Positions 154-16,412 of a stretch of DNA of 17,345 bases are shown here, piece by piece. The notes beneath the pieces were generated by a model. It saw only the letters and a list, made by a program, of their open reading frames with translations, made no database searches and was not told the DNA's origin. A program made the position numbers and the translations under genes. Within the stretch, counting starts at the first letter, position 1. Every line of letters starts with the position of its first letter. Origin of the DNA: a virus (Duplodnaviria > Heunggongvirae > Uroviricota > Caudoviricetes); the IMG/VR virus record IMGVR_UViG_2713897073_000004. One strand, written 5' to 3'.

Positions 154-162
154 ATCACCAGT

Positions 163-703: not shown

Positions 704-1255
704 TTACGCTTCCTGCTCTTTCTTGATACGTTGCACCGTCTGTGTGCTGACACTGAAATCTTTTGCTACGCTCCGAATTGATCCACCATTCGCGAGAGCG
801 GCAGCAATTCCTGCTCGATCAATTGCTTTTCCATTACCACGTTTTGCTATACGCCCAGCGGCCTTAGCTGCCGCGATCCCTTCACGTTGACGCTCAAGCA
901 TCATTTCACGCTCCATTTGTGCCACTGCTGCAAGCACTGTGAGCATCATATTCCCTGCGGGAGAGTTCTTCCCTGTCTTAAAGTCTTCTTTATGGAAATG
1001 CACAGACACGCCGCGCTCTGTTAATTGCTCAACCGTTGCCAGAAGGTCGGCTGTATTACGACAAAGGCGATCAATACTATGGACGTGTAACACGTCACCC
1101 TCCCGCACATAGTTCATCATTGCCTCAAACTGTGGGCGCTGAGTGTTCTTGCCTGACGCTTTATCTTCAAAGACTTTATCAAGAGTTACTCCAGCTAATT
1201 GACGGTCTGTGTTTTGTTGCACAGTCGATACCCTAATGTATCCAATATTAGCCAT
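704..1255 (-). CDS. serine recombinase, resolvase/invertase family
   Basis: 185-codon minus-strand ORF. Probable start is the second ATG (1255, AAGGA about 8 nt upstream), giving MANIGYIRVSTVQQNTDRQ. N-terminal YIRVST motif with the nucleophilic serine, SIDRLCRN, AVAQMEREMMLERQREG core, and a C-terminal HTH (SIRSVAKDFSVSTQTVQRI). An alternative start at 1261 adds two residues. Confidence 0.88.
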   Translation of the reverse strand: MANIGYIRVSTVQQNTDRQLAGVTLDKVFEDKASGKNTQRPQFEAMMNYVREGDVLHVHSIDRLCRNTADLLATVEQLTERGVSVHFHKEDFKTGKNSPAGNMMLTVLAAVAQMEREMMLERQREGIAAAKAAGRIAKRGNGKAIDRAGIAAALANGGSIRSVAKDFSVSTQTVQRIKKEQEA

Positions 1256-1754
1256 TTTCATTTTCCTTCTGTGTTGATTTGTGTGTAGTGATTATTGATC
1301 GTGTTGATTAGGTGTGTAAAGGACTTTTTTCACTACGAAATTCGAAGGTTTTTAGTGTGGTGATTTAGCCTGCTTTATCACTACACGTCTTGCATGAGAA
1401 TCATGTAGTTACGTTTTGGTAAAATTAGCAAGCTATTAAATAGTGTGTTTATTTTGAAAAAATAATTTTTTGTTGCATTAAAGAAAACTTGTTCGACAAA
1501 TAATAGATTGATTTTTAATCAACAATTTCTGATAGTGCTCTGTAAGCCGCATTACATAAGGCTTTGCGAAAGTGATGTAAAAGTGAAGAAAGCTAACATT
1601 GCACTTTTTAAGCTACTTTTCATTGAATTTTTACGTAGAAATTACACAGGGATTAATCATCAATTAATCTTGAATTTAAGCCTGTTTTTTTAATTTTTGA
1701 TAGCAAGAAACACTTTTAGAAGATCATTGCACAGATGTTATGTGATAAATGGAT

Positions 1755-1878
1755 GTAACGATGGGTTACATTCAGCTATCTGAAATACTCTCTGTAAGAA
1801 ATTTGGTAGTAACGATATTACACATCGGTAGTAACGATACGTTACATCGGCAGATGATTGGTTGTAACGAAAGGTTAC
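1755..1878. repeat. cluster of four GTAAC-N5-GTTAC palindromic sites; candidate iterons or recombinase/regulator binding sites
   Basis: GTAACGATGGGTTAC (1755-1769), GTAACGATATTACAC (1809-1823, degenerate right half), GTAACGATACGTTAC (1831-1845, perfect), GTAACGAAAGGTTAC (1864-1878, perfect). Sites 2 and 3 sit inside a tandem 22-23-bp repeat GGTAGTAACGATA..TTACACATCGG. Centre-to-centre spacings are about 54, 22 and 33 bp. Confidence 0.6.
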
Positions 1879-2628
1879 ACAATAAGACTAACATCTATAA
1901 TACTAATAATAAAACTAACTATTAAACTATATAATATAATTCTTTTTATTTTTATAAGAATAATTATAGGGATACCCGTTAGGAAGTCTTCGAATATCCC
2001 TTAATCTATTGGCATTCGCCAGAACCTTGCACAAGTTAGAGTGTTAGTCGTTAGACTGCTTGTCATAACACATAGTTTTTGTTTGTTGATGTTAGTTAGT
2101 AGATCTATGTTCGCTAATACCGCTCACAACGAATATGTAATCTACTATGTGCAATAACCTTGTGTGCTACGCATTAGCGATGTTAGCACATAGACACAGA
2201 CAACAACCAACAACAAACAAAAAAGAATGGTTTTAGTAGTTGAAGGTTAAATAAGATTCTACCGCTTAAATCAAGCCGTAGGCGAGCTAAACGTATATAA
2301 GGTAGGGAAACACCTTAGCGGTAATAGATTAGCTCGTTATAGAGCTTCTGAGGAGCTTTACAGGTATTTTATAAGATGTCTGAAATCATAGTTTATCTAT
2401 CCACCATCTTTCCATCACCTGATAAATCAAAAATAAGCCCCTTAAATAAACCTCTGACGAGATAAACAGCCATTAGATAAGGCAATGTATTGCTTTTATC
2501 AAAACTTCGTTAGAACGCGTTTTAGAGCGTTTTAGACAATAATGAAGAATAGCACTACACAGGAGAGCACGAATTGCTAAGAAAAAATGTAAGTACATGA
2601 AAAAGATCAGATTTTTTATGAAAAGGTA

Positions 2629-2657
2629 TTGACAAACGTCTCTTTCTGTGCAATAAT
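2629..2657 (+). promoter_or_regulatory. sigma70-type promoter for the small-gene operon
   Basis: TTGACA (2629-2634), 17-nt spacer, AATAAT (2652-2657); consensus -35, 5/6 -10, optimal spacing; about 125 nt upstream of the first operon gene. Confidence 0.5.
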
Positions 2658-2781
2658 AGGTATTAGAGGGACAGGAATAGATTCTTATCCTCTAAATAAT
2701 TAAACCAATGCACCGCACTTTGAAGCCCAAGGCTTGCAAGGTGTTTTTTCTTTTAACCAAATAGAATAAGGAGGCTAATTA

Positions 2782-2958
2782 ATGAAATATTTTACTCCAC
2801 AGGATGTAGTAGAAGCCTGGAAACGTGGTGAGATCAACCGCTTTAAAGTAAGGATGTATAGAAACACCGCTCGCCGTTGTGGTTATCCAGAGCGTGAAAA
2901 ATGTTTTGACGATGCACTGAAAATTATTGATGAACTGCGTAAAGCTGAGAAAGAATAA
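2782..2958 (+). CDS. hypothetical small protein (58 aa), first gene of the AT-rich operon
   Basis: ATG 2782 preceded by AAGGAGG (2768-2774, 7-nt spacer); MKYFTPQDVVEAWKRGEINRFKVRMYRNTARRCGYPEREKCFDDALKIIDELRKAEKE, stop TAA 2956-2958. Not in the ORF track (under 60 aa). The minus-strand track ORF 2779-3012 is its antisense shadow. Confidence 0.6.
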   Translation: MKYFTPQDVVEAWKRGEINRFKVRMYRNTARRCGYPEREKCFDDALKIIDELRKAEKE

Positions 2959-2980
2959 TAGACAAGAGAAGGAGAAAACT

Positions 2981-3148
2981 ATGAGCGAAACCAAGAAACC
3001 AATTCCACGCACTTACCTACACGTTGACCCTGAAATTTTCAAGATTTTATTTTCTGAAGCCAAGAAAAGGCAAGTTATGGTCAGTGATTTGATGTTAGAA
3101 ATCATTACTGAAGCAGCAGAGAACATCAAACAAAAAAAGGGTAAGTGA
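2981..3148 (+). CDS. ribbon-helix-helix (CopG/Arc/MetJ-like) DNA-binding protein, 55 aa
   Basis: Start at the internal ATG 2981 of track ORF 2927-3148, with GAAGGAGA 5-6 nt upstream. MSETKKPIPRTYLHVDPEIFKILFSEAKKRQVMVSDLMLEIITEAAENIKQKKGK shows a beta-strand (RTYLHVD), helix A, short turn, helix B pattern typical of RHH proteins. Fold call is from pattern only. Confidence 0.5.
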   Translation: MSETKKPIPRTYLHVDPEIFKILFSEAKKRQVMVSDLMLEIITEAAENIKQKKGK

Positions 3149-3201
3149 TCCTCATTCACTTTAGTAGCGCATTAAGCGTGATTTATAAGGAGATAATTCT
3201 A

Positions 3202-3882
3202 ATGTCTAAAATTAAATTGATTCGTGAAAAACACCAGTATGTTGATAAACAAACAGGAGAAATTAAAGACCGAACTTTGAATATACCGCATTACTTTTGT
3301 GAGATTGAATTCATCTACTCCTCAAATATTGAGGATGGAAGAGCGAAGTTTAGTGCAGAAATGCAAAAATTATATTGCTATGTTTCAGATTGGGAGAAAT
3401 CAGGGGGGATATGTTTTGAAACACAAACGAAGTTAAGTAAGGTTTGTGGCTGTAGCCGTAAGACAGTTAATGAATTGATTGGTCTTATGATTAAAATCGG
3501 TCTTTTAGAAGAGGTCGGAGAACGAATCCCAAAACGTCCATTAAAATTACGTGCGCTACCTCTCACAGATGCACATATTACTCCCCCTAGAGAGTCATCA
3601 CTACCTGATCCTTCTGAGAAAGAAGACGAATCTAATGAAATATTGAATGTTTCCGAAATCATCCTTGAAGAAGAAACACAGGAATCAGCGTTCCCTGAGC
3701 GGCCCGAAATTTTTACTTGGCTTCTTTCCCTTGATAAGAAGAAACCACCGCACGAAGAAACAGAAGATTTTGTAAAACGTGTATTAGATTCAAAGAATAT
3801 CTATCTTGAGAAACAGGCTTTTCACGATCTGATAATATCTCTAAGAGAAAAAAGTGAAATATACGATTCGATACCCTTCTAG
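3202..3882 (+). CDS. winged-helix DNA-binding protein, HTH_36-like (replication-initiator/regulator type) with acidic C-terminal region
   Basis: Start at MSKIKLIRE (ATG 3202, AAGGAG 9 nt upstream); the track ORF starts earlier at 3145 with no RBS. KLYCYVSDWEKSGGICFETQTKLSKVCGCSRKTVNELIGLMIKIGLLEEV matches the HTH_36 pattern seen in phage/plasmid replication-initiation proteins. C-terminal half is E/D/P-rich. Confidence 0.55.
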   Translation: MSKIKLIREKHQYVDKQTGEIKDRTLNIPHYFCEIEFIYSSNIEDGRAKFSAEMQKLYCYVSDWEKSGGICFETQTKLSKVCGCSRKTVNELIGLMIKIGLLEEVGERIPKRPLKLRALPLTDAHITPPRESSLPDPSEKEDESNEILNVSEIILEEETQESAFPERPEIFTWLLSLDKKKPPHEETEDFVKRVLDSKNIYLEKQAFHDLIISLREKSEIYDSIPF

Positions 3883-3894
3883 GAGAATAAATAA

Positions 3895-4164
3895 ATGACT
3901 TATAACATCACTATAGGAAACAAAACTATTGAAATAACTGAAAGCGGATACAACATTTTAAAAGCTATTTTGGAAATAGAGTTTTCACCACCGACAGTGG
4001 TTAGCTTTTGCAGCTTAGGTTGCTACAGCACCCAACATGTGAACAATTGGTTAAGCCATTTTACATCGTTCGGTGTGCTGGATTATGAAGGGATTAACAG
4101 CACTACATTTCGTCTTTTGAAATTAAACAAAGATTTTGAATTGTTTATCACAAACAATCAATAA
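3895..4164 (+). CDS. hypothetical protein (89 aa)
   Basis: ATG 3895 with AGGAGA 8 nt upstream; 13 nt after the preceding stop; same strand and tight spacing as neighbours. Confidence 0.5.
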   Translation: MTYNITIGNKTIEITESGYNILKAILEIEFSPPTVVSFCSLGCYSTQHVNNWLSHFTSFGVLDYEGINSTTFRLLKLNKDFELFITNNQ

Positions 4165-4260
4165 CAACAGATCGGGCAATACATATGGCAAATGCATTTA
4201 TGGCGATATTCATCGTAACTATGGCATTCAGTTTTTATAATCCACATAAAAAGAGGGAAA

Positions 4261-4644
4261 ATGGGAAGAAAGAAAAAGAACAACTTAAAACGTATTGAAA
4301 AAAACAGTAATTTCAATTCAACAAGACAACGTCCACCGACACACACCAATAACGAAATTCCAGGGGAAGAGATAATCTTTATTCTTGAAACAGAATCCCC
4401 TGAATTAAGTGATCAAGAATTAGAAATAATCCAGTCAATGCCAGGCGTTTACTTTCGCCCAAGAACAAGGAAACAAACTATCATTTCTGATGGCACTCTG
4501 AAACGTTGGCAGCTTTTAGGGTTTAGCTCCTATCATCATTTTTTGGGATTTAACGCTTTCAATAATTGTGTAGGTGGTGCATCGGAAGTCGATCTGATGG
4601 CTCATTTAGAAGATACATTAGCTTCTAACAAACGTTCTAACTAA
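4261..4644 (+). CDS. hypothetical protein (127 aa), basic N-terminus
   Basis: ATG 4261 preceded by AAAAAGAGGGAAA; N-terminus MGRKKKNNLKRIEKN is highly basic. Confidence 0.55.
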   Translation: MGRKKKNNLKRIEKNSNFNSTRQRPPTHTNNEIPGEEIIFILETESPELSDQELEIIQSMPGVYFRPRTRKQTIISDGTLKRWQLLGFSSYHHFLGFNAFNNCVGGASEVDLMAHLEDTLASNKRSN

Positions 4645-4702
4645 TAAAAATGATGGGCGTATGTATAAGCGCCCAATGAAAATATTCAATAAAGGAAAAA
4701 TA

Positions 4703-4933
4703 ATGATTAACTATCAACTATTAGAAACAACATTTTTTAAAGAAGCAAAACAACTTGCAGAAGTGTTTATTTCACTGGCTGAACGAGCAAAAGAAGAAAA
4801 TGATTTTGCCTTGCTTGATGATGTGCTGGATGACATTGCAACCTATCGTATACCGCTACAGATTGCACTAAACAAGGCTAAACAGATTCAGCAAGAGATG
4901 GAATCAGCAGATCAAGGAGAGATTGCACAATGA
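4703..4933 (+). CDS. hypothetical helical protein (76 aa)
   Basis: Start taken at internal ATG 4703 (MINYQLLETTFF...), preceded by AAAGGAAAAA; the track ORF begins at 4661 with no RBS. Stop overlaps the next start (ATGA). Confidence 0.5.
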   Translation: MINYQLLETTFFKEAKQLAEVFISLAERAKEENDFALLDDVLDDIATYRIPLQIALNKAKQIQQEMESADQGEIAQ

Positions 4934-5241
4934 CAGACAACATTCTGGAAGTTATGGACACTCTTTCGGATCGGATGATCACCCTACAGACACGTATCAA
5001 TCAAGCCTATTCAGATTTATGCGATTACACGCTCTCTCAATGCGTAATTAGCTTAATGAAGGTGAATGTAAGCCTTGACGATTTTATCTCTCTGGTGAGC
5101 GATTTAGAGCAGCTATCTGAGGACGATGCCAAGATGTGCACTCAAACCATCACAGACACCGCCAGCACGTTAAAGGCTGCAAGTGAAGAGATTCAGCAAT
5201 TAGTAGATGATTTAGCAAAAAGTGCTATTTTCTCTAAATGA
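4930..5241 (+). CDS. hypothetical acidic helical protein (103 aa)
   Basis: ATG 4930 overlaps the upstream stop in ATGA (translational coupling); last gene of the AT-rich operon. Confidence 0.55.
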   Translation: MTDNILEVMDTLSDRMITLQTRINQAYSDLCDYTLSQCVISLMKVNVSLDDFISLVSDLEQLSEDDAKMCTQTITDTASTLKAASEEIQQLVDDLAKSAIFSK

Positions 5242-6205
5242 TAATGAAAATCATTTGCATTTATAATGATTTTGTTATATAATAATTTTAGGGGTAGATA
5301 AAAAGGTTTTGACTGGTGTTAATCCTTTTCCTGTCATAAATCCCTGCATATGGAAGGTGATAGCCTCAAGGGTTGAGTGGCATTAACCTCTAACAAATAT
5401 TACCTTCCATCTCTCAAGAAGTTTTAGAATAATCATAACTCCCTCTTTGATTGTTGATTGTTTCTACGTTGTGTTGATGAATGTTGTTAGGCATTGTGCT
5501 TAATTTTGATAAAAGCGGGTAGGTGTTATCTCCTTGCCCTTCTCGCTCTTATTTTTCATCTGTGCTTATCCTAAAGCTCCTTATTTTGTCCGAAAACATT
5601 AAAGAGCCTTACACTGATAGTTATATTTTATAACTATTTACTAACATCACTAAACTCATTATTTAATGACAGAAGTTAGTAACAGAATAATCTATTAAGT
5701 TGTTGTCAAAAACAATCATCTGCATAGCGTTAGCCGCAAGCAGAGAGAGTTTAACTAAGAATGGAAGTATTGATAAGTATACCAGTTTACAAAAAAGATT
5801 TTTTCTAAATTGCAAATTCTTTCCAAAGCGGTAGATTACTGTGGTGTAGTTAATCCCTATTAAAATTTAATCTGTGAGTAGATTGGAATAGTGATTCCTT
5901 AAAATCTGACTGGTGCATCCACACCATGAAAGATAGCGGTTTAGCCCACCGCAACCAGAATATCAGGTCTTAGTGATTCCAGTGGGGCAACTCCTAAGAG
6001 CCTTTCTTCTAAGATCTGATATTCACTCTTTAAGCATATCATCAAGTATATTTAAAAAGTGTATTTGCTGATATGTTTAATCCTCTTATAGTTTAACTTA
6101 TCAATTATGTAATTGCCCGCACGTTAAAGCCCCTTTGCTGGTCAGAATTAACCTCTTACGGCATTGGGGCTTTTTATTTGTCTGGCACTAACAGGAACGT
6201 TATTT

Positions 6206-6403
6206 ATGAAACAAGAAATGATTATCAGCAAAGACGGGGAAACGATGATTGTTAGTGATGAAAACCTCATTAAGGTTGCCGCACTGTTGGGAGTTACTCC
6301 TGAAAGTCTTCATTCTACCACTGCTCAATTATTTAAATCGGCTGATGCGGTTAGTCTTGCTGATGCCCTTAAATCTAAAATTAAACAACTGAAAGGAAAA
6401 TAA
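6206..6403 (+). CDS. hypothetical protein (65 aa), first gene of cargo operon
   Basis: Start taken at ATG 6206 (MKQEMIISKDGE...), with AGGAA about 9 nt upstream; the track start at 6164 lies inside a GC hairpin/T-run and lacks an RBS. Confidence 0.5.
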   Translation: MKQEMIISKDGETMIVSDENLIKVAALLGVTPESLHSTTAQLFKSADAVSLADALKSKIKQLKGK

Positions 6404-6407
6404 TCTT

Positions 6408-6791
6408 ATGGCTAACCCATATGGAAAATTAAAAGCAGTGAATGCGGATAATTCCCGTTCACGCTGTAAGGTAGTAGCTTACGCTGCTGATCCAGTGCTG
6501 CAAGATCGCCTCGTCAAACTGGCTTCACCTCTCACTGACGATCTTATTGTCGGGGCTTTGCTGAAAGCCGATGGCACCAAAGCAACAACCGCATCTGATA
6601 TTGCTCACGTAGTAGTTGAACCGGCTTATGAAGGACAGGAAAGCGTAGTGGTTGCACATCCTACTTTCGTTATTCTGGCTGAAGATGGGATTGAATTTAA
6701 CAGCATGGAAAAGGCAAGTGTTATTGCAAAACTGCAATCTCTCGGCTTTGTAATTGCTGGTTATGAAGAACTTGCGATCCCTACGACTTAA
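6408..6791 (+). CDS. hypothetical protein (127 aa)
   Basis: ATG 6408 with AAAGGAAAA upstream, 4 nt after the previous stop; codon usage is more balanced than in the AT-rich operon. Confidence 0.65.
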   Translation: MANPYGKLKAVNADNSRSRCKVVAYAADPVLQDRLVKLASPLTDDLIVGALLKADGTKATTASDIAHVVVEPAYEGQESVVVAHPTFVILAEDGIEFNSMEKASVIAKLQSLGFVIAGYEELAIPTT

Positions 6792-6805
6792 CAAGGAAAA
6801 TAATA

Positions 6806-7837
6806 ATGAATGATTTATCAACATATTTTGGCGTTAATACTGCGGTAGTAACTCCATTTGCTTATGAGAATGCACTTAATACCCTGATTACTAATCTCGA
6901 TCTGTTCGATGTGCAATATCATACAGAAAACAGCATTCTTCTTACCGACCTGATTGATCAGTTTGTGCAGGTAGCTGGGGAAACCTCGCCTTACACTCAA
7001 AGCAGCTGGAACGCCTCTAAACGTCAGGAATGGTCAAACAAACTTTTCCAGATGAAGCACGTCGGCAGTATTAACGCTGTTACTTCTCGTGACCTGGAAC
7101 AATACAGCCGCCAATATCCAAACCGTTCTGATGCTATGCTGGTAGCGGTTAATGATTTCTCTGAGGCTCATTACCGTTCACACGCAAACCGTGTTGAAGT
7201 GGATCTGATTACCGCGCTGCTGGGACTGAAAGTTGAATCTGAATATGCCGGACAAGGTGATCTCGACTTCCTCGACGGTCAGGCTAAAACCACGGTACCC
7301 GCTATCGACTTTGCATCGACTAGTGTTAACCCGTTCCTTGCTATTCGTAAAGCGGTGCGCTTACAGAGTGAAAAGCTGGGGTCTGGTCTTGCTGCAAAGC
7401 GAACTGGTGTAATTATCTTTGCTGCTGGCGCTGCTGCTGATGGTTTGTCATCTAACCCGCTGATCAGTGACATGGTGAAATATGCAGGTGATGCGAGTGC
7501 TACGGCCCTGTTTACCCGTATGGTTGATTCTAACCCAGCCTATGACTCTTTCCAGATTGGTGGGATCACTGTTATTGATGTGTCAATGTTTCCTGAGATT
7601 GTTGCTCACATCGGAGAGAACGGTTTCGCAATTGTTCCGGTAATGGATAAGTCGGCACAGTGTTACCAGCTTCATAGCGGCGTTGGTGTGCGTCATGCTG
7701 AGTTAGGTCAAGATGCCGTGTTACATCACCAATATCTAATCAAGGATGAATTCCAATTCCCATCTGTGGTTACTGAGACATCTTATCTGCCAGTAAACAA
7801 CATTCCGCAAGCTATCATCTTCGGATCTGCTGCGTAA
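6806..7837 (+). CDS. hypothetical protein (343 aa), no recognisable catalytic motif
   Basis: ATG 6806 with CAAGGAAAA upstream; long clean ORF 14 nt after the previous stop. No Walker, HUH or nuclease motif found by eye. Confidence 0.75.
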   Translation: MNDLSTYFGVNTAVVTPFAYENALNTLITNLDLFDVQYHTENSILLTDLIDQFVQVAGETSPYTQSSWNASKRQEWSNKLFQMKHVGSINAVTSRDLEQYSRQYPNRSDAMLVAVNDFSEAHYRSHANRVEVDLITALLGLKVESEYAGQGDLDFLDGQAKTTVPAIDFASTSVNPFLAIRKAVRLQSEKLGSGLAAKRTGVIIFAAGAAADGLSSNPLISDMVKYAGDASATALFTRMVDSNPAYDSFQIGGITVIDVSMFPEIVAHIGENGFAIVPVMDKSAQCYQLHSGVGVRHAELGQDAVLHHQYLIKDEFQFPSVVTETSYLPVNNIPQAIIFGSAA

Positions 7838-7977
7838 TAAAGCATTAATAGACGATTCCCCATAGGGGCAATAAGGTAAGGGATAATCATATAAGTAAAA
7901 TATGCGCTGTCTCTTGCCCTTATTTTTTTTCTACTGTCTACAGACCCAAATAAAAATATATATGTGAGAGAAAACCA

Positions 7978-8190
7978 ATGAACGCAGAAAATTCACAGGC
8001 ATTAATTCTTAAATCTGTAAAAGAACTGGCAGCTATTAGCGAGGAATCAGTTATAAACACATCGGCGCTTTGCCGCCTTTTAGAAATTGATGCAAATAAT
8101 GTGCGGCAGCGTGTGTTTCAGACTGGATGCAGCACTTTTGAAGCAATTGCATACTACTGTTCTAAAAACAATAACAAACAACAATTATAA
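7978..8190 (+). CDS. small putative HTH protein (70 aa)
   Basis: ATG 7978; segment NTSALCRLLEIDANNVRQRV looks like a helix-turn-helix; sits directly upstream of the 613-aa gene. Confidence 0.5.
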   Translation: MNAENSQALILKSVKELAAISEESVINTSALCRLLEIDANNVRQRVFQTGCSTFEAIAYYCSKNNNKQQL

Positions 8191-8208
8191 TGCAGGGAAA
8201 CTATTAGA

Positions 8209-10050
8209 ATGCTTGAAATTAATGCCGCACGTATCTCGAACGTTATAACATTTACGACCGACTCCAAAAGCTTACAGAAAGCTAAGAATGAAGTAGAAAA
8301 ACTTCGTAAACAAATGGCGGCGGTGAAAGATATAGAATTGCGTGTTAAGACACATAAACAATCAACCGCTAAAGCAAAAAAAGACGTAGACGATATTGCT
8401 AAAAAGCAAGCACAGGCAGATAAAGCCAATGCTAAAGCACAATTAGCCGCTCAACGTGTAGTTGCAAGAGAACAAAAAGCCCTGGCAGCACGGAAAGAGA
8501 AGGCTGAATTAAAGCTTTTAGACGTTGGAGCAAGCATTAGCGCATTGCACCGTCTTTCTGTAGCGGAACAATATAAAGCTATTGCACAGGCTAGAGAAAT
8601 TGCCCTCCAATATGAAAGAGGCGCTATTAGTCTGGCACGTATGAATAGCCAAATGAAACGCCTACAACAGCAACAACGTAAGATTAATGGCAATCGTAAC
8701 GCTCACGCTAAAGCCTATGCACCTGTTAAGGGTAGCGGGAGTATTGGCGGCGGTGCTGCGGCTGTTATGCTGGGCGGCTTAGGCGCTGGCGCTGCATATA
8801 TGGCTATGAGCAAAGCCTCTGAATTTGTTACTAACAGCTTTGCGAATGCTGAAACGCTGGGTGAATTGTATAGCCGTGCCAAGCTGGGCGGTGTAGACGT
8901 TAACCAGATGAACAATATTGAGCAATGGGCGTATAAAAACGGCGTTGATTCAATGATGGGCGAACAAGGTAAACGTAAGTATCTCGATCAGATGAAAGAT
9001 GTGCGTGAACGTGCAACCAAATCTTATGATGAAGCTGAATATGTAGTTGATAAGAAAACTGGTAAAGGAGAATGGAAGGGCGGCGATAGCGGCATCAATA
9101 CTTTAATGAATGAAGGATTCCTAACTAAAAAGGATCTAAAAGACTTTGCTGATAATCCGGCTGGTCTGGTTAGTAAAGCAGTTCAGGGAATGGTAGCTAA
9201 AGGCTATTCAGATGCACAAATCGGTAGTCGTCTGGAAGATCTGGCTGATGATTTGATGCTCACCTCTAAATACTGGACACGCTCCGCTAAAGAAGTGGAA
9301 CAATCAGCACGAGAACAACGAGAATCAGGGCGCTGGGTAACACAGGCACAACAGGAAAGCGTTATTAAATTCCGTGAACTGAATAATGCACTTAGTGGGC
9401 TTTCTGACTCACAAGGGATCGCCTTTGTTGATGGCTTTATGAAATCTCTTGATCCGAAAGTGATTGAAGAGTTTAAAAAGAGCATGGTTGCAATGCTGCC
9501 AATGTTTACCAAATTAGGCGAGGCTGTAGGTGGTCTGCTTAATGCGATCATGAAAACTATCAACTGGCTGATGAAAAACGACGAGAAGACGGCAGCTATT
9601 CAGAAGAATTTAGGTGATGCACCGCCACTATCTAACGAAGGAATGAAGCAGAATCTTTCTAATCTCACTCCTGATCAATATAAAGGCGCTGGCACCGGAA
9701 CAATTAAGCCAGATAACAGCAATTCCCTGGTTAACACTATTAAAAGCTGGTTTATGCCAGAAGAAACGGTAGGTGGGGCACAGGCTGTAAATCAATACAG
9801 TCTCGAAGGACAAAACATTGCAAATCTGAAACAGAGTGCAGCACAACAAGCTTTCAAGGCTCCTTCTTACACCTTTGCACCTGTTATTAACTTCAATCCA
9901 GAATTACAAGTAAATGCAGAAGTGCCGCTAACTATCGAATCAGACACCGGACGATTGAGCGAATTTATCGACTTCAAATCAAAGGCATCTTCCGCTGAGT
10001 TTAGCAAGCTATTAACGCTTGGTGTTATGTCAGGCGGGTCAACCTATTAA
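8209..10050 (+). CDS. large hypothetical protein (613 aa): N-terminal K/A/Q-rich coiled coil, glycine-zipper hydrophobic segment, large C-terminal domain
   Basis: ATG 8209 with AGGGAAA upstream. Residues about 20-165 are K/A/Q/E-rich heptad-like sequence; residues about 175-201 are GSGSIGGGAAAVMLGGLGAGAAYMAMS (nt about 8731-8811), a Gly/Ala-rich membrane-type segment; the remaining roughly 400 aa are mixed. Composition recalls tape-measure or pilot/ejection proteins, but no homology is established. Confidence 0.8.
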   Translation: MLEINAARISNVITFTTDSKSLQKAKNEVEKLRKQMAAVKDIELRVKTHKQSTAKAKKDVDDIAKKQAQADKANAKAQLAAQRVVAREQKALAARKEKAELKLLDVGASISALHRLSVAEQYKAIAQAREIALQYERGAISLARMNSQMKRLQQQQRKINGNRNAHAKAYAPVKGSGSIGGGAAAVMLGGLGAGAAYMAMSKASEFVTNSFANAETLGELYSRAKLGGVDVNQMNNIEQWAYKNGVDSMMGEQGKRKYLDQMKDVRERATKSYDEAEYVVDKKTGKGEWKGGDSGINTLMNEGFLTKKDLKDFADNPAGLVSKAVQGMVAKGYSDAQIGSRLEDLADDLMLTSKYWTRSAKEVEQSAREQRESGRWVTQAQQESVIKFRELNNALSGLSDSQGIAFVDGFMKSLDPKVIEEFKKSMVAMLPMFTKLGEAVGGLLNAIMKTINWLMKNDEKTAAIQKNLGDAPPLSNEGMKQNLSNLTPDQYKGAGTGTIKPDNSNSLVNTIKSWFMPEETVGGAQAVNQYSLEGQNIANLKQSAAQQAFKAPSYTFAPVINFNPELQVNAEVPLTIESDTGRLSEFIDFKSKASSAEFSKLLTLGVMSGGSTY

Positions 10051-10097
10051 TCATCACTGTGGGGCTGTTTAGCCCCCTTAAATAAGGATTACAAATT

Positions 10098-10775
10098 ATG
10101 GCAATGGGTCCGTTAACCATTGGTCGCCCGACTGAGGCGAAAATCAACAGCACAAGCAACGATAGCAACGGTAGAACAACTAAAGGGGGTAACGGCTTTG
10201 CGATCATTACCTCTAATCTCGGCAGTGGTGCAAATGCTGCTTACAATGACTACCAGGCATTATCATTTGATAGCGTGGAATCGACGAGAGTTAGCAGAAA
10301 TGCAGACGTTACAAGCTATGCTGTCGAATCAGGATCAGAAGTTAGTGATCATGTTCAAATACGGAATAACAAGTTCACATTACAAGGGCGTATCTCTGAA
10401 ACCGTATTGAAGCTCAATCCTGATATGATTAAGAATGCTGGAATTAACGGCAATCGACGTATGCTTATGCTTGAATACCTAAATCAGTTGATGGACAGTC
10501 GCCAACCTTTCCTACTTGTCACTGAGTTAAAAAATTATGACAACGTTGTGTTAGTTGGCATGTCTTACGCAGAAGAAGCAAGCGAAAGCCTATTGTTTAC
10601 TCTTGATTTTGAGCAAATCCGTCTTGTCTCTAAAGCAACTACAAGCGCAATTGCGGTAAAAACAGCACCAAATAAATCTGTAGGAGGCCAGGTTAAAATG
10701 CAGGTAAATACAACAGAACAGAAAAATCAAAAAAGCCCAGGGCAAGACGTTGTAACGCCAGTATTTAAACAATAG
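10098..10775 (+). CDS. hypothetical protein (225 aa), S/T/N/G-rich N-terminus
   Basis: ATG 10098 with AAGGA upstream; last gene of the cargo operon; the overlapping alternate-frame track ORF 10120-10410 is rejected. Confidence 0.7.
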   Translation: MAMGPLTIGRPTEAKINSTSNDSNGRTTKGGNGFAIITSNLGSGANAAYNDYQALSFDSVESTRVSRNADVTSYAVESGSEVSDHVQIRNNKFTLQGRISETVLKLNPDMIKNAGINGNRRMLMLEYLNQLMDSRQPFLLVTELKNYDNVVLVGMSYAEEASESLLFTLDFEQIRLVSKATTSAIAVKTAPNKSVGGQVKMQVNTTEQKNQKSPGQDVVTPVFKQ

Positions 10776-10816
10776 CCTTAAACGCCTATGAAACGCTCTG
10801 TAACGAGATAATCATA

Positions 10817-10848
10817 AAAGAGGCATCAGCCTATATTGAAGCCTCTTT
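10817..10848. terminator. hairpin between convergent genes; candidate bidirectional terminator
   Basis: AAAGAGGC (10817-10824), 16-nt loop, GCCTCTTT (10841-10848), between the cargo operon end (10775) and the integrase stop (10856); A/T-rich on both flanks. The loop is large, so stability is uncertain. Confidence 0.35.
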
Positions 10849-10855
10849 ATTACGT

Positions 10856-12133
10856 CTATAGCGTTGTTTTACGCCTTAAATTTGATTTTTTATTGATTGA
10901 TAAGCCTTTCTCTATTTCAGGATAGCGTAAAAGCTCAATATATTTTTTAAGCTCTACTGGAGAAGCTGCATTTTTGCTATATGTGCGGAATGTTTCTGTA
11001 TTGCCGCGTGTATGGCCCAGGAGAAGGGCGATCCTGTCTTCTGGAATTTGATTTCGATCAAGAAGCTGTGCTACTCCGTGTCTCAGAGAATGAAACACTT
11101 TCCTTTCTGTTCCCTTTTCCCCTAAAGCCTTTCGTTTAGCTCTTGTAAATCGTTGTGTATGCCACGTAGAGCGTTTACCGTCAGCACGCTCTGTAATGCT
11201 GGCGTGATAGAACAAAAAGCCATTGTGAGGCTTTTCACGAAGAGATAACACCAATGGAGTGATAAGGCTATGCACAGGCACAAGACGTGCCGCAGCTTTC
11301 GTTTTTCCCTGTGTGATTTCAAAACACAGCACACCTTCGATCTCTTTCACATCGTCTATTGTGAGACTTGCTATCTCATTGATCCGCATCCCTGTATATA
11401 AACCGATAAGACATAAAGCCGTCATTTCTTTGTTTTCTGCTGAATTACCGGAAAATACTTGCAACACCTGCAATAGCTCTTTGTTAGAAAATGCCTCGTA
11501 GCTCTCTCTACTTTGTGCCACATCAAGCCTATGCCCTCGCCAGGGGGAGAGCGCCCTTTCTGGCGCATCGTGGTAACGTGATGAAGCTAATTCCCATAGC
11601 TGGGCCATTGGGCTGATATAATTTGCAATTGATTGTTGTGAAAGAGTTTTTTGCATGTGTTCAATCCAGCCTGTAACAGTGGTGCGGCTTACATCTTGCA
11701 ATGCAATATCAGGCTTTTTACGGTAGGAGAGAAACATCTCTACCGCTTTTCTTGCCTTAGCTAAAGTGGCTGGCTTCTTCTTCGTGCTGTTAATTGTCAG
11801 GTAGATTTCAAGAATTTTAAGCAATGACGGACACGAAGACGCTGTATCTTGCATTCTGGTAGCTGTTTTGGCGTATTTAGCCTTACTGCGTAACAGTTCC
11901 AGCGTGTTTTCTATTGTGCTGTTTACAGGGGCAACACTCTCCCGTAAGCAATGGTATTCATCTGCAATCTGATCACGCTTTCTACGTGCAACACGAAGAT
12001 TACTTGTGTGCAGACTTCTGACAAACGTCCTTTTTCCTTCAAAAAAGGGCTGCATATACACAGGCAGCGTGATCCTTAAATAGTAGTTACCGTAAGAATC
12101 ACAGATTAAGTATTGGTTAGGCTTGTATCTCAT
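10856..12133 (-). CDS. tyrosine site-specific recombinase/integrase with DUF6538-like N-terminal domain
   Basis: Catalytic signature of tyrosine recombinases: TGMRINEIASL (Arg), VFHSLRHGVAQLL (HxxR), LLGHTRGNTETFRTYS (His...Tyr). N-terminus YLICDSYGNYYLRITLP...GKRTFVRSLHTSN fits the YYFRRR-type arm domain. Start placed at the internal ATG 12133 (GGAG 5 nt upstream); the track start at 12190 has no RBS. Confidence 0.85.
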   Translation of the reverse strand: MRYKPNQYLICDSYGNYYLRITLPVYMQPFFEGKRTFVRSLHTSNLRVARRKRDQIADEYHCLRESVAPVNSTIENTLELLRSKAKYAKTATRMQDTASSCPSLLKILEIYLTINSTKKKPATLAKARKAVEMFLSYRKKPDIALQDVSRTTVTGWIEHMQKTLSQQSIANYISPMAQLWELASSRYHDAPERALSPWRGHRLDVAQSRESYEAFSNKELLQVLQVFSGNSAENKEMTALCLIGLYTGMRINEIASLTIDDVKEIEGVLCFEITQGKTKAAARLVPVHSLITPLVLSLREKPHNGFLFYHASITERADGKRSTWHTQRFTRAKRKALGEKGTERKVFHSLRHGVAQLLDRNQIPEDRIALLLGHTRGNTETFRTYSKNAASPVELKKYIELLRYPEIEKGLSINKKSNLRRKTTL

Positions 12134-12310
12134 AAAATCTCCGGCTAAAGTGTCGGAGCGTTTGTAATGTGAAAATTGATTGTGACGCATAGAAAATGAT
12201 TATTTTTCTATAAGATTCAATCAATTAGTAATGGTCGTAGTGATGGCATTAACACGAGATTAATCGAGTGTTTTACTCCTATTATCGGCACCATTCAAAC
12301 ATCTCCCCAA

Positions 12311-12396
12311 GTCTACTAAAGTCTTTCAAAACCCCTTATAATCCACGTATTAAAGCCCCGTTCGTCTTTTGACGTCTACTAAAGTCCCTCAAAATC
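12311..12396. repeat. pair of 23-bp direct repeats between the two integrase genes; candidate att core or integrase arm sites
   Basis: GTCTACTAAAGTCTTTCAAAACC (12311-12333) and GTCTACTAAAGTCCCTCAAAATC (12374-12396): 20/23 identical, first 13 nt exact, 63 bp apart. Confidence 0.6.
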
Positions 12397-12458
12397 TACG
12401 GTCAGATGGGGGTACTTATGGGGGTATTTGCTGTTCGGTTTAGTGGAGGTACCCCCAA

Positions 12459-13673
12459 GTGAAACTCAATGCCCGTCAAATAGACACAGCCAAGCCAAAA
12501 GAGAAGGCTTACAAGCTGGCCGATGGTGGCGGTTTGTATCTCTTGGTAAAACCTAATGGAGGTAAATACTGGCGACTTAAATATCGTGTAGCAGGTAAAG
12601 AGAAGCTATTGGCACTAGGTGTGTATCCTGAGGTTACTCTAGCCGATGCTCGGGCAAAACGTGAAGATGCGAAAAGAGGTATCGCTGGTGGTATCGATCC
12701 GATGGAAGCGAAACGAGAGGAAAAGATTGCCCGGGAAACGCAGTTAAACAACACCTTCAAAGATATTGCCCTTGAGTGGCACAGCAGCAAATTAAAAAAA
12801 TGGTCTGCTGGTTATGCTTCAGACATCCTCGAAGCCTTCAACAAAGATGTGTTCCCTTACATTGGCAAAAAACCAATCGCCGAAATCAAACCACTTGAAC
12901 TTCTGAATGTGCTGCGGCGCATCGAGGGGCGCGGTGCGACAGAAAAAGCCAAAAAAGTGAGGCAGCGGTGCGGGGAAGTTTTCCGCTATGCAATAGTCAC
13001 TGGTCGCGCAGAGTATAACCCTGCACCAGACCTTACTAGCGCGATGCAAGGCCATGAATCTAATCATTACCCTTTCCTTACGACCAAAGAATTACCTGAT
13101 TTTTTCAAGGCATTATCCAGTTACTCAGGAAGCGCATTGGTTGTTATGGCGGCTCGCCTACTGATTATCACCGGCTTGCGAACTGGCGAACTACGTGGCG
13201 CATTATGGGATGAAATTGATTTCAACAAGGCTATATGGGAGATACCCGCTTCACGTATGAAAATGCGGCGGCCTCATATTGTGCCATTGTCTGAGCAGGC
13301 TCTTTCGCTTATTGGGAAGATTAGAGAAATAACAGGCAATTACCCTCTTATGTTTCCCGGGCGCAATGATCCAAGGAAAACAATGAGTGAGGCCAGCATA
13401 AACCAAGTGTTTAAGCGCATTGGCTACGCTGGACGTGTAACTGGTCATGGGTTCCGACACACTATGAGCACGATTTTGCATGAGCAGGGCTATAACACCG
13501 CGTGGATAGAAACGCAGCTCGCTCACGTTGATAAGAACTCAATTCGTGGCACATACAACCATGCGCAATATCTGGATGGACGGCGGGAGATGCTTCAATG
13601 GTATGCCGACTATATGGATTCTCTCGAGCATGGCGGAAATGTGGTGCATATGGTGTTTGAAAAACACGCATGA
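12459..13673 (+). CDS. int: P4-family tyrosine integrase
   Basis: GTG start 12459 with GGAGG 9 nt upstream. N-terminal arm-binding domain typical of P4-type integrases (AKPKEKAYKLADGGGLYLLVKPNGGKYWRLKYR), catalytic Arg (ITGLRTGELR), HxxR (GHGFRHTMST), and C-terminal LAHVDKNSIRGTYNHAQYLDGRREMLQWYADYMD with the catalytic Tyr. Confidence 0.92.
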   Translation: MKLNARQIDTAKPKEKAYKLADGGGLYLLVKPNGGKYWRLKYRVAGKEKLLALGVYPEVTLADARAKREDAKRGIAGGIDPMEAKREEKIARETQLNNTFKDIALEWHSSKLKKWSAGYASDILEAFNKDVFPYIGKKPIAEIKPLELLNVLRRIEGRGATEKAKKVRQRCGEVFRYAIVTGRAEYNPAPDLTSAMQGHESNHYPFLTTKELPDFFKALSSYSGSALVVMAARLLIITGLRTGELRGALWDEIDFNKAIWEIPASRMKMRRPHIVPLSEQALSLIGKIREITGNYPLMFPGRNDPRKTMSEASINQVFKRIGYAGRVTGHGFRHTMSTILHEQGYNTAWIETQLAHVDKNSIRGTYNHAQYLDGRREMLQWYADYMDSLEHGGNVVHMVFEKHA

Positions 13674-13980
13674 AACAACTGGACAAGTATACAGAGGTTT
13701 ACTAAAGTATAGGGGAGTAGATTGATAAAAACTCACAGAGGATTGCTATTTAACAGTTAGCCTTGGAGAAGGGCAATCGCTCTTTTATAAACGAAGGTGT
13801 ATTGAGCCTTCTACGCTGCTGAAAAGCGGAATGTTCTTTAACAGGCTTTGGCGCTGACAAAGCGCAATTGTTCTTTAAAACTACTGGATGTCACGCCTAA
13901 TAGCGTGATCCTGCCGAAATGCAGGGTAGCTCTACCCTTGTGGAGCAAACAAACCAAAACAATCTGACTATCTTTTATAA

Positions 13981-14013
13981 AAGACCGCAATATGTTTTTC
14001 ATATTGTGGTCTT
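13981..14013. promoter_or_regulatory. inverted repeat upstream of alpA; candidate operator
   Basis: AAGACCGCAATATG (13981-13994), TTTTT, CATATTGTGGTCTT (14000-14013): 14-bp arms, 13/14 complementary, about 90 bp upstream of the alpA start. A second palindrome GGGTAG-CT-CTACCC lies at 13924-13937. Confidence 0.4.
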
Positions 14014-14100
14014 TGGCGTATTCGACATTTGACGCAAATAAAACTCTCGCCATTCGTTGCAGGAGGGGGTTATTGCGTCATTAGTACAGGATATTAATAA

Positions 14101-14304
14101 ATGGCTAATTACAATTCATTAATTCGTCTCTCTGAAGTTCAAAGGCGAACTGGTTATAGCAAAGCATGGATTTATCGTCTTATTAGTCAGGGGAGGTTCC
14201 CTAAACAGGTAAAAATTGGAAGTCGGGCAATTGCTTTTGTTGAGTCTGAAATAGATGAATGGATTGAGAAGTGTATATTAGAATCTAGAGACGAGGTGGC
14301 CTGA
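14101..14304 (+). CDS. alpA: AlpA/Vis-family transcriptional regulator (excisionase-like HTH)
   Basis: 67 aa; LIRLSEVQRRTGYSKAWIYRLISQGRFPKQVKIGSRAIAFVESEIDEWI is the classic AlpA signature; positioned just downstream of a P4-type int, as in P4-like islands. Confidence 0.85.
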   Translation: MANYNSLIRLSEVQRRTGYSKAWIYRLISQGRFPKQVKIGSRAIAFVESEIDEWIEKCILESRDEVA

Positions 14305-14735
14305 TGGAAAAGAAAAACCGCCCATTACAGGCGGCTAATTCAGATATTCGCGTATCTGATGTTACGCCCCTGACAAAATCCCTTCAAGCACCAAAGCGCA
14401 CGCCGAAAAAGCATCGTGCCCGAGTCTATATGCTGCGTACTGGTATAGAGGGATGGACAGAAAATGACATTCTTCGCTACTGCCGTCTGTCTTCTGGTCG
14501 TAACTATGCAACAGAGTTAGAACGCCAGCTTGGAATCACTCTGGAGCGTATCGACGAAAAGAATCCTGATGGTATCGGAACACACCTTCGCTACCGTTTC
14601 TCCTGCCGTGGTGATGTTCTGAAAGTGATCACTCATGTTAACCATCTTGCGAACATAAATGATCACAACGGACTTTCTCAGCAGGAAATTGCCGACATTC
14701 TGAAACTCTACCCGGACGCGTTTAACGCCGCCTAA
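14304..14735 (+). CDS. hypothetical protein (143 aa)
   Basis: ATG 14304 overlaps the alpA stop (TGATG), indicating coupling; basic N-terminus (PKRTPKKHRAR); no motif recognised. Confidence 0.65.
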   Translation: MEKKNRPLQAANSDIRVSDVTPLTKSLQAPKRTPKKHRARVYMLRTGIEGWTENDILRYCRLSSGRNYATELERQLGITLERIDEKNPDGIGTHLRYRFSCRGDVLKVITHVNHLANINDHNGLSQQEIADILKLYPDAFNAA

Positions 14736-14747
14736 CGGAGACTAAAA

Positions 14748-15581
14748 ATGAACATCGAAAAAAGCAGATTAATTTCTGAGGCCGCCCCTCATCTGAACGC
14801 CTCTCTGGGCACAATTAACGGTAATGAATTTGCCGCAATTGTCCCGGTTATTTCTGGTCATATAGGCGGGCGTGAAACCAATATTGTTAGCGCAAAAGCG
14901 TTACACAAAGCGTTGGGCGTGGGAAAAGACTTCTCTACATGGATCACTGATCGCATCTCTGAATATGACTTCACCATTGGGCACGATTACTCAGTCCATA
15001 AAACAATTTCCCCAAATTTGGGGAAAAGCCCGAATGACGCGGCTTACAGCAAGATTAAGCAGTCTGGCAGACCCGGCAAAGACTATCTGTTAAGTGTCGG
15101 AATGGCGAAAGAACTGGCAATGATCGAACGCAATGATCAGGGTCGCGCTATCCGCCGTTATTTCATCCAGTGCGAGAAAGAATTACAGCGTAGCGTGCCT
15201 GAAATCGCCGCCCGCTATCGTCGCCAGCTAAAAGCCCGTATCAGTGCCGCAAACAACTTCAAGCCAATGTGCGATGCGCTGAATATGGCCCGTGCCGAGA
15301 TGGGGAAAACGACGCAGCAACACCACTACACAAACGAGAGCAATATGATTTCTCGTATCGTTCTTGGTGGGCTAACTGCTAAGCAGTGGGCGCGGATAAA
15401 TGGCTATTCTGGCGAACCTCGCGACCATATGAACGCAGAACAGCTTGAGCACCTCTCATATCTCGAAAGCACCAATATCACGTTAATTGATATGGGCATG
15501 GAATATGAGCAGCGCAAAGGAGAACTCACCCGCCTGTCGCAACGCTGGCTCGCCAAGCGTCTGGAGGCGGTCCATGTTTAA
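14748..15581 (+). CDS. putative antirepressor, AntA/AntB- or KilAC-like (277 aa)
   Basis: ATG 14748 with ACGGAG upstream. Segments FSTWITDRISEYDFTIGHDY and GKDYLLSVGMAKELAMIERNDQGRAIRRYFIQCE resemble phage antirepressor domains. Family assignment is from remembered motifs, not a search. Confidence 0.6.
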   Translation: MNIEKSRLISEAAPHLNASLGTINGNEFAAIVPVISGHIGGRETNIVSAKALHKALGVGKDFSTWITDRISEYDFTIGHDYSVHKTISPNLGKSPNDAAYSKIKQSGRPGKDYLLSVGMAKELAMIERNDQGRAIRRYFIQCEKELQRSVPEIAARYRRQLKARISAANNFKPMCDALNMARAEMGKTTQQHHYTNESNMISRIVLGGLTAKQWARINGYSGEPRDHMNAEQLEHLSYLESTNITLIDMGMEYEQRKGELTRLSQRWLAKRLEAVHV

Positions 15582-15756
15582 GCCGACAGGAACACCACAA
15601 CCTCAAAAACGCTACAAAGATGCCCACGGAGCACTCGTTACTGTCGAAAGCGTGTCTCACAACCGAGTGACGTTTTATCGCGACGGGTATCAATCGCCAT
15701 GCGTACAACCGCTGGCACGTTTCATGAAGGAGTTCGCGGAGGTTAACAAATGCTAA
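15574..15756 (+). CDS. hypothetical small protein (60 aa)
   Basis: Start taken at internal ATG 15574 (MFKPTGTPQPQKRYKDAHGALVTVESV...), which overlaps the AntA-like stop by 8 nt. The track ORF 15487-15756 extends upstream inside the preceding gene and is rejected as an N-terminal extension. Confidence 0.5.
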   Translation: MFKPTGTPQPQKRYKDAHGALVTVESVSHNRVTFYRDGYQSPCVQPLARFMKEFAEVNKC

Positions 15757-16393: not shown

Positions 16394-16412
16394 ATCTGAA
16401 GGAGGCTGCCAC

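Follow-up and report, generated by a model that had tools for sequence, protein, structure and literature searches.

A family of Enterobacterales integrative elements with capsid and tail-core genes related to those of Stephanstirmvirinae phages: a candidate phage satellite

Results

The gene block and its boundaries

The window, a stretch of 17,345 nucleotides of viral DNA (IMG/VR record IMGVR_UViG_2713897073_000004), contains most of an integrative element of ~13 kb. Six same-strand genes (6206-10775), coding for products of 65, 127, 343, 70, 613 and 225 amino acids (aa), are followed there by a convergent gene for a tyrosine integrase. We describe these genes, which appear to encode head and tail proteins akin to those of Stephanstirmvirinae phages, and weigh whether the element is a satellite of such phages (called helper-type phages below). 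Features are listed in Table 1, and members of the element's family are designated by L and a number. A preliminary description of the window had reported six genes of these sizes, an ORF-poor stretch of 960 bp and the convergent integrase, and both the open reading frame (ORF) listing and RefSeq agree with it: the window is a piece of E. coli chromosome, and the same six coding sequences are annotated in E. coli chromosomal copies 96-100% identical to the window, five of them as 'hypothetical' and one as 'phage baseplate protein'. The first product is 65 aa long from its ATG; a TTG start at 6164 would extend it to 79 aa. Upstream of the block, the spacer 5242-6205 (~960 bp) holds no ORF of 60 aa or more. 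Ratios of non-synonymous to synonymous substitution rates (dN/dS) were computed relative to copy L016, 96.7% identical to the window, and values of 0.28, 0.00, 0.25, 0.11, 0.20 and 0.07 were obtained in gene order. Such low values in all six indicate real genes under purifying selection.

Table 1. Features of the element in the window
Feature	Coordinates	Strand	Evidence
Serine recombinase, invertase/resolvase type, left end of element	704..1261	-	PF00239 E 1e-38, phrog_125 E 1.9e-62
Putative winged-helix replication initiator	3145..3882	+	HTH_36 E 1.5e-4; PHROG replication-initiator families down to E 6e-6
Terminator-like hairpin (AAAGCCCC...GGGGCUUU), then U-rich run	6126..6173	+	fold -24.2 kcal/mol, z -4.0
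Palindromic box TAACAGGAACGTTA between hairpin and ribosome-binding site	6189..6202	+	
65-aa small protein, head unit gene 1	6206..6403	+	positional homologue in 53/55 loci
127-aa putative cement/decoration protein, phi92 gp123 counterpart	6408..6791	+	
343-aa HK97-fold major capsid protein (predicted), lambda gpE / phi92 gp124 type	6806..7837	+	
Hairpin and U8, 3' of capsid gene; head/tail unit boundary	7870..7932 (stem 7870-7924)	+	fold
70-aa small protein, tail unit gene 1, helix-turn-helix-like	7978..8190	+	kept in at least 43/55 loci
613-aa tape measure protein (predicted), phi92 gp134 counterpart	8209..10050	+	
225-aa tail-tube initiator (predicted), Dit-like, phi92 gp135 counterpart	10098..10775	+	
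Hairpin between convergent tube-initiator and integrase genes	10817..10848	.	fold -19.9 kcal/mol, z -3.3
Tyrosine integrase (DUF6538, SAM-like and catalytic domains)	10856..12190	-	PF00589 E 3.2e-17, PF20172 E 3.6e-9
attR, 20-bp copy of tRNA-Thr (thrW) 3' end; doubles as attL of next island	12275..12294	+	

The block had been described as a compact operon. Its same-strand arrangement stands, but not the single operon, since the hairpin 5' of the first gene and the hairpin with its U8 run 3' of the capsid gene divide it into a head unit (65, 127 and 343 aa) and a tail unit (70, 613 and 225 aa). Most family members have a terminator-like hairpin after the capsid gene, as does phage PHB05, and a head/tail recombination breakpoint maps to the hairpin region 7870-7932. 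Ten family loci were compared for the hairpin and T-run upstream of the head unit, and eight of them have an equivalent there; in L015 it is not clearly present. For the palindromic box, sequences of the form AACA-N4-7-GTTA were found at the matching position in L007, L008/L011/L013, L009 and L012. The presence of this hairpin and of a conserved box directly 5' of the head unit suggests that expression of the unit may be gated, and the box is a possible operator or helper-responsive site. The hairpin between the convergent tube-initiator and integrase genes is likely a bidirectional terminator.

Tail and head proteins

The clearest assignments were obtained in the tail unit. The 225-aa protein matches PF21821 (Dit_like) with an E value of 1.8e-27 and 96.4 bits, the gathering cut-off being 24.2, and it matches Phi92_gp135, the sequence of a solved structure, with E 4.2e-53. 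It is 49-53% identical to the product of the gene just 3' of the tape measure gene in Phapecoctavirus and Justusliebigvirus, and tube initiators of the family reach 65% identity to Phapecoctavirus proteins. The 613-aa protein, which had been noted as tape-measure-like, matches phrog_16051 (tape measure, E 2.9e-32) and Phi92_gp134 (E 6.6e-21). It aligns collinearly with PHB05 gp126 along most of the sequence, the match at the C-terminus being only weak; the two share an N-terminal MLEIN..ITFT motif, and a hydrophobic Gly/Ala segment, GGGAAAVMLGGLGAGAAY, is seen in the 613-aa protein. By its profile match, its collinearity and this segment, it is predicted to be a tape measure protein of the Stephanstirmvirinae type. 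Family tape measures are 591-634 aa long (with one exception), versus 660-662 aa in phages, and are 23-40% identical to those of known phages, the Raoultella and Yersinia proteins being very distant. The 70-aa protein belongs to a family with weak helix-turn-helix matches (Sigma70_r4_2 in 5 of 9 members, HTH_17 in 3 of 9). No similarity of this protein to gp125 (a small ORF) or gp110 of the helper-type phages was found, and none to PDB sequences.

In the head unit, the 343-aa protein is rare: only 17 clusters of relatives were found among 5.8 billion proteins, and those with a name all come from Enterobacterales chromosomes. Seven homologues carry PF03864, the lambda gpE capsid family, for which the window protein itself is below the Pfam threshold. 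Its AF2 model (pTM 0.66) matched the capsid proteins of ICP1, PhiTE, Bas63 and lambda in Foldseek (E 6e-12, probability 1.0), ICP1 giving the best structural match, and a profile of the 343-aa protein aligned by hhalign with the PHB05 capsid protein with a probability of 81% over 229 columns. The window protein is too diverged to give any tblastn match in the 50,697 phage records searched. A motif of the N-arm, NLxLFxxxxH, is common to this protein and the capsid protein of helper-type phages. It was considered as a sign of interaction with the helper and dropped, since the motif is clade-wide.

The 127-aa gene adjoins the capsid gene in all 55 loci surveyed, and its product is close in size to the decoration protein of helper-type phages (130 aa). 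Four weak comparisons fall in one register: phrog_2680 (E 0.068), Phi92_gp123 (E 0.98) and two by hhalign (E 0.0042 and 0.0016). The profile remained weak against 13 decoration proteins of helper-type phages (hhalign E 0.0016, probability 16%), and no Pfam family matched, including the phi92-type cement family PF26074. An AF2 model built from a shallow alignment had a pLDDT of 42.7 and was unusable for a check of the beta-tulip fold. On synteny and size, we regard the protein as probably a cement or decoration protein; because the structure model failed, the assignment is tentative.

For the 65-aa protein of the window, no database match was obtained. The corresponding gene of the Yersinia member codes for a protein 40% identical (E 7e-13) to the N-terminal 90 aa of gp114, with a match to phrog_2970 (E 1.2e-15), and reads clearly as a fragment of gp114. 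The gp114 gene lies immediately 5' of the decoration gene in the helper-type phage, and from this position and its coiled-coil composition gp114 is likely a scaffold or a protease. An hhalign comparison of the 65-aa family with gp114 was not significant, the Yersinia member alone being clearly related. The 65-aa protein is, tentatively, a possible scaffold-derived assembly factor.

Profile, PDB-sequence and fold evidence agrees with one suggestion of the preliminary description, that of a minimal phage-structural module including a decoration and major capsid pair, where the capsid part is backed by profile and fold and the 127-aa part is tentative. The description had also called the six proteins unassignable, which no longer holds, three of them being clearly assignable and one tentatively. 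As to the searches it proposed, profile searches were clear for the 225- and 613-aa proteins, worked through homologues for the 343-aa protein, were weak for the 127-aa protein and gave nothing for the 65-aa protein. Structure prediction followed by Foldseek recovered an HK97 fold for the 343-aa protein, and the 127-aa model could not be used. The neighbourhood of the 343- and 613-aa genes proved conserved (see the survey below).

Relation to Stephanstirmvirinae phages

In the late region of PHB05 (Justusliebigvirus) and anhysbys (Phapecoctavirus), the order is TerL, portal, gp113, gp114, decoration (130 aa) and capsid (333 aa) genes, then neck, sheath, tube, chaperone, a 57-aa ORF, tape measure (660 aa), tube initiator (238 aa), hub, spike, wedge and fibre genes. 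The genes of the island follow this order and are counterparts of the decoration, capsid, tape measure and tube-initiator genes, plus a gp114 fragment, i.e. only 4-5 of ~25 structural genes, strongly diverged. Homology is clear for the tube initiator and the tape measure, is seen by profile and fold for the capsid protein, and is tentative for the cement protein. In the cryo-EM structure of phi92, gp124 forms the T=13 shell, which trimers of gp123 cement, a gp134 trimer fills the tube, and the tube is initiated on the hub by a hexamer of gp135 (PMC13450770).

The collection of 50,697 phage records was searched with several proteins of the family. Three different tape measures each matched 134 records, with equal organism breakdown, dominated by Stephanstirmvirinae-type phages. 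The Yersinia-type capsid protein matched 157 records, all of the Stephanstirmvirinae type, and in 152 of these the coverage was at least 80%. We consider it very likely that the genes are homologues of Stephanstirmvirinae head and tail genes. The island genes lie on an integrative element with its integrase, whereas the Stephanstirmvirinae phages are virulent and have none. At the DNA level, no similarity of the element to any phage was found, hence no shared pac or cos site or promoter was detected.

Six records labelled 'Campylobacter phage' (MG065639, MG065645, MG065650, MG065656, MG065689 and MG065690, 143-151 kb) contain capsid, tape measure or tube-initiator genes that match those of E. 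coli phages of the Stephanstirmvirinae type; record A135, in the same set, matches at a weaker, rV5-like level. The host labels of these records may be wrong.

The element and its family

A direct repeat, ACTCCTATTATCGGCACCAT, is present in E. coli E66 (L001) at the 3' end of thrW and again after the integrase gene. It has one match in the window, where none is expected by chance, and its other copy lies ~620 bp to the left of the window start in strain E66. The two copies delimit the ~13-kb element.

Related elements were found in Klebsiella, Citrobacter, Raoultella, Phytobacter, Buttiauxella, Kosakonia, Scandinavium and Yersinia. They occupy several different chromosomal sites, and this distribution over many genera points to horizontal movement of the element. 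In the 55 loci with enough flanking sequence, the order upstream small gene, decoration, capsid, middle small gene, tape measure, tube initiator where present, and integrase (UP>DECO>MCP>MID>TMP>(DIT)>INT) is conserved. The decoration gene was found in 55 loci, the tape measure in 54, the upstream small gene in 53, the middle small gene in at least 43, the integrase in 48 and the tube initiator in 33. The six genes had been taken for cargo, and this survey makes them rather the conserved core of the element. Homologues of the portal, TerL, sheath, tube, tail assembly chaperone (TAC) and hub of helper-type phages were found in 0 of the 55 loci; neck proteins were not searched for. Among complete E. 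coli genomes, 560 out of 5,426 (~10%) carry at least part of the module, and the O104:H4 outbreak lineage is among the carriers.

Head and tail units reassort: in eight loci the capsid protein is ~100% identical to that of the window, with a tape measure only 25-30% identical, and two loci present the reverse situation. E. coli E66 (L001 14340-16970) has head genes 99% identical to those of the window and a different allele of the tail unit. Its tape measure is 37% identical to the window's and split into ORFs of 205 and 427 aa, and its tube initiator shares 53% identity with that of the window and as much as 65% with Phapecoctavirus proteins. It was also asked whether the tape measure is closer to that of the helper in loci that do not encode a tube initiator. 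The medians were 217 versus 165 bits with overlapping distributions, and because the trend is weak and overlapping, this co-variation is not used as evidence.

Besides the block and the integrase, the element holds several small conserved ORFs and two long ORF-poor regions. Signs of a replication module are the weak winged helix-turn-helix (wHTH) and initiator matches at 3145-3882 and iteron-like repeats at 1751-1880. This module differs among members, a DUF6945 wHTH protein or a 490-aa SF2 helicase being encoded at the position of the putative initiator. The left-end recombinase is a serine invertase of the Hin/Gin type in E. coli elements, and a ~185-aa tyrosine recombinase in Klebsiella, Raoultella and Yersinia (L004 3835-4395, L014 3332-3898, L015 4130-4678). 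This non-homologous replacement suggests a shared role, for example multimer resolution or a DNA switch. An invertible switch operated by the serine invertase was looked for: no convincing flanking repeats were found, only a weak 19-nt inverted repeat that is not conserved in L007, and the idea was abandoned.

The first ORF-poor region (1262-2781, 1.5 kb) is 83-90% identical to L007, as compared to 44-71% for the capsid, decoration and small proteins, and is therefore better conserved than the structural genes. Its AT-rich zone (GC 0.30) contains four iteron-like repeats, GGwwGTAACGA..TTACA, at 1751, 1805, 1827 and 1860, and the region is a candidate origin or regulatory region. The half-sites of the TAACAGGAACGTTA palindrome (TAAC/GTTA) recur in the cores of these repeats (1756-1877), and one DNA-binding protein might serve both the box at 6189-6202 and the repeats. 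Five other family members have a comparable box ahead of their first gene. In the other ORF-poor region, the 960-bp spacer, the sole part conserved with L007 is 5887-6034 (71.5%). It includes a hairpin (5958-6024) with a perfect-looking 16-bp stem, GAATATCAGGTCTTAG/CTAAGATCTGATATTC, for which no Rfam match was obtained; a scan of 1200-6300 gave no credible Rfam family.

Pfam, PHROG and NCBIfam scans of the element ORFs gave no match to portal, terminase, protease, sheath, tube, baseplate wedge or lysis proteins. The 127-aa protein encoded at 4261-4644, with a very basic N-terminus, is conserved in six other family members. It matched nothing in Pfam, PHROG, PADLOC or PDB sequences and is a candidate for a role in the satellite's biology, for instance in packaging specificity or in sensing the helper. 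PADLOC, run on the 65- and 70-aa proteins and eight other element ORFs, gave as sole match a weak ZorA-like one (E 0.0072) for a 103-aa ORF (4930-5241).

In L002 and L016 the element is not directly beside thrW; it is at the right end of a larger composite region, next to the yagP pseudogene and paoD; in K-12, the CP4-6 cryptic prophage has its right end at this position. The yagL, yagM, yagN and intF genes of K-12 might be remnants of a related element.

The rest of the window (12295-17345) belongs to a second integrative element, placed in tandem at the duplicated thrW att site, with an integrase at 12459-13673. In the E66 annotation, this integrase is followed by an HTH regulator and by PM1773-family, AntA/AntB antirepressor, DUF4222 and Ash-family proteins. 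Two RNAs, isrK (16131-16208) and a C4 antisense RNA (16271-16359), are present, and in E66 the element continues with a TOPRIM/DUF927 primase. This composition indicates a P4-like satellite, so that two different satellites would be stacked at one tRNA gene.

Discussion

Judging from its predicted genes, the element has the general attributes of a satellite: its own integrase and att sites, and an incomplete set of virion and packaging genes. An integrase, att sites, a putative replication module and helper-type virion genes under selection, with the rest of the virion and packaging genes not detected, fit a phage satellite. We estimate at roughly 60% the probability that the element is a phage satellite which uses the module to hijack Stephanstirmvirinae phages. 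The helpers would then most likely be virulent myoviruses of the phi92/phAPEC8 type (~148 kb, T=13 heads).

The mechanism we propose is as follows. Upon helper infection, the element would excise and replicate. Expression of the head unit would produce a small shell built on the portal, scaffold and protease of the helper. A shell of about T=3-4 would fit a genome of ~13 kb: if capacity is scaled as T^1.5 from 148 kb at T=13, ~16 kb is obtained for T=3 and ~25 kb for T=4. This shell would be filled by the helper terminase. In the tail, the element's own tape measure and tube initiator would replace the gp134 and gp135 counterparts and, together with the baseplate, tube, sheath and fibres of the helper, give chimeric contractile tails. 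These tails would be ~7 nm shorter than those of the helper, because the tape measure has 613 aa instead of 660, at ~1.5-1.6 Å per residue. The outcome would be the spread of the element and an interference with the helper, after the precedent of PLE and ICP1; interference is likely a by-product.

Several points weigh against a satellite of these phages. No excised or packaged form was detected: none of 80 metagenome loci was circular or of element length, and the IMG/VR matches are provirus calls from genomes. Neither a TerS-like protein nor any pac/cos similarity to the helper was detected. The capsid protein is only ~22-25% identical to that of the helper, which weakens the case for co-assembly with the helper portal and scaffold. 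Finally, the cement assignment of the 127-aa protein is weak, the 65- and 70-aa proteins have no established role, and the tube initiator is not found in every member (33 of the 55 loci).

The PLE satellites of Vibrio cholerae, parasites of the virulent T=13 myovirus ICP1, provide the closest precedent, one backed by experiment. PLE encodes its own TAC, tape measure protein (582 versus 677 aa) and baseplate hub, 20-41% identical to those of ICP1, which replace the ICP1 proteins in chimeric, shorter tails, and PLE thereby escapes its own inhibitor of the helper tape measure (PMC11838301). As in PLE, the island is small and integrative, and its predicted helper is a virulent myovirus (genomes of ~125-150 kb, T=13 heads). 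It also encodes a tape measure shorter than that of helper-type phages and a baseplate-core protein, both of low identity to their counterparts (tape measure 23-33%, tube initiator 49-65%). PLE draws its sheath, tube, baseplate and fibres from ICP1 (PMC11838301), and by gene content the element would likewise take them from its helper. The two differ in the head: PLE resizes the helper capsid protein with an external scaffold, TcaP (PMC10945586), whereas the element has its own predicted capsid and probable cement proteins. Unlike PLE, it has a tyrosine integrase, Enterobacterales hosts instead of Vibrio, and no TAC homologue found in any of the 55 loci. PLE itself uses a large serine recombinase.

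The element resembles the capsid-forming PICIs (cf-PICIs) of Enterobacteria in its size and in having its own HK97-fold capsid protein, the EcCI2 capsid (9gyi) being among the Foldseek matches. The cf-PICIs form their own small capsids; they are described as having a full head module (portal, protease, connectors, TerS) and as stealing only tails, from temperate helpers. By comparison, the element lacks any detected portal, protease, connector or TerS in the Pfam, PHROG and NCBIfam scans, contains tail-core genes, and points to virulent helpers. In Mycolicibacterium, the satellites named EPIPs (Extracellular Prophage-Inducing Particles) are reported to code for their own major capsid, scaffold and tape measure proteins and to have an altered tail length (PMC12822802). 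Unlike our element, they add TerS, a head-tail adaptor and stopper, and a serine integrase, are extracellular and induce a prophage in actinobacteria (PMC12822802). Markers of P4-like satellites (Sid, Psu, Delta, alpha primase and CI RNA) were not found in the element (1-12294). For PICI and PICMI, general Pfam, PHROG and NCBIfam scans revealed no TerS or primase-type protein, and no feature-by-feature comparison was made. The element falls outside every named satellite family compared.

We give about even odds to the more specific proposal of an undescribed satellite family with a double substitution, its own capsid and cement lattice being set on a stolen portal and packaging machinery, and its own tail core in stolen tails. 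This strategy would stand between that of cf-PICIs (own heads, stolen tails) and that of PLE (stolen heads, chimeric tails). No Stephanstirmvirinae satellite, nor any element with such a gene set, was found in the full-text literature searched, subscription journals being outside its reach. The preliminary description held that placing all six proteins in a known morphogenesis module would make this a described system: four are placed there, the 65- and 70-aa proteins are not, and the carrying element was not met in that literature.

Among other explanations, the one that survives best, though we consider it unlikely, is a pure defence island: the structural copies would act as dominant-negative decoys that poison head and tail assembly of Stephanstirmvirinae phages, the element being left unpackaged, and this could coexist with piracy. 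Its proteins are indeed divergent versions of the assembly proteins of helper-type phages, searches of the element revealed no packaging function, and interference with tail assembly is a known strategy of islands and satellites (PMC11364771; Rta of PLE11, PMC11838301). A full-length capsid and cement pair under selection and a full-length tape measure with a helper-like N-terminus are nevertheless more than a decoy would require. The element also has its own integrase, att sites and a putative replication module, and its occupancy of several sites in many genera argues for horizontal movement. PADLOC found nothing for the two small proteins of the block and only the weak ZorA-like match upstream, which also gives no support to the dedicated defence or effector system once suggested for this locus.

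Slightly less probable again is a satellite of a different, unsampled helper, such as a temperate relative, the likeness to Stephanstirmvirinae reflecting shared ancestry. Low identities to known phages leave room for it: the window capsid protein is without any tblastn match, and the tape measures are distant from known phages, those of Raoultella and Yersinia most of all. On the other hand, the tube initiators are 49-65% identical to Phapecoctavirus and Justusliebigvirus proteins, the tape measure and Yersinia-type capsid matches are tied to Stephanstirmvirinae-type phages, and identities between PLE and ICP1 proteins are equally low, 20-41% (PMC11838301).

A decaying prophage remnant, or captured phage DNA with no present function, is quite improbable. 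The thrW/CP4-6 region is known for cryptic prophage debris, and some copies are disrupted by insertion sequences or have a split tape measure gene. Yet all six genes have dN/dS values of 0.00-0.28, the same non-contiguous helper-type subset is kept in the same order at 55 loci across genera, the related phages are virulent and without integrase, and head and tail units reassort as intact blocks; the remnant envisaged in the preliminary description is disfavoured by this selection and by the retention of one selective subset. Least credible of all is an autonomous minimal virus, or a helper-free producer resembling a gene transfer agent, for despite capsid and tail-core proteins encoded in only ~13 kb, no portal, terminase, protease, tube, sheath, baseplate or lysis genes exist in the element or within 10 kb.

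If the element is indeed a satellite of Stephanstirmvirinae phages, it would extend the recent finding of satellite-encoded tape measure proteins, and offer in E. coli a tractable counterpart of the PLE-ICP1 pair, in which the exploited phage is virulent. One could then learn whether a satellite is able to bring in its own capsid lattice while lacking a portal of its own, and what specifies capsid size and portal incorporation would become directly testable. Phages of the phi92, phAPEC8 and ESCO types are widely isolated as agents against E. coli and Klebsiella, in therapy as well as in biocontrol. Such Stephanstirmvirinae phages could be made less effective by a resident satellite, which could also use them for gene transfer.

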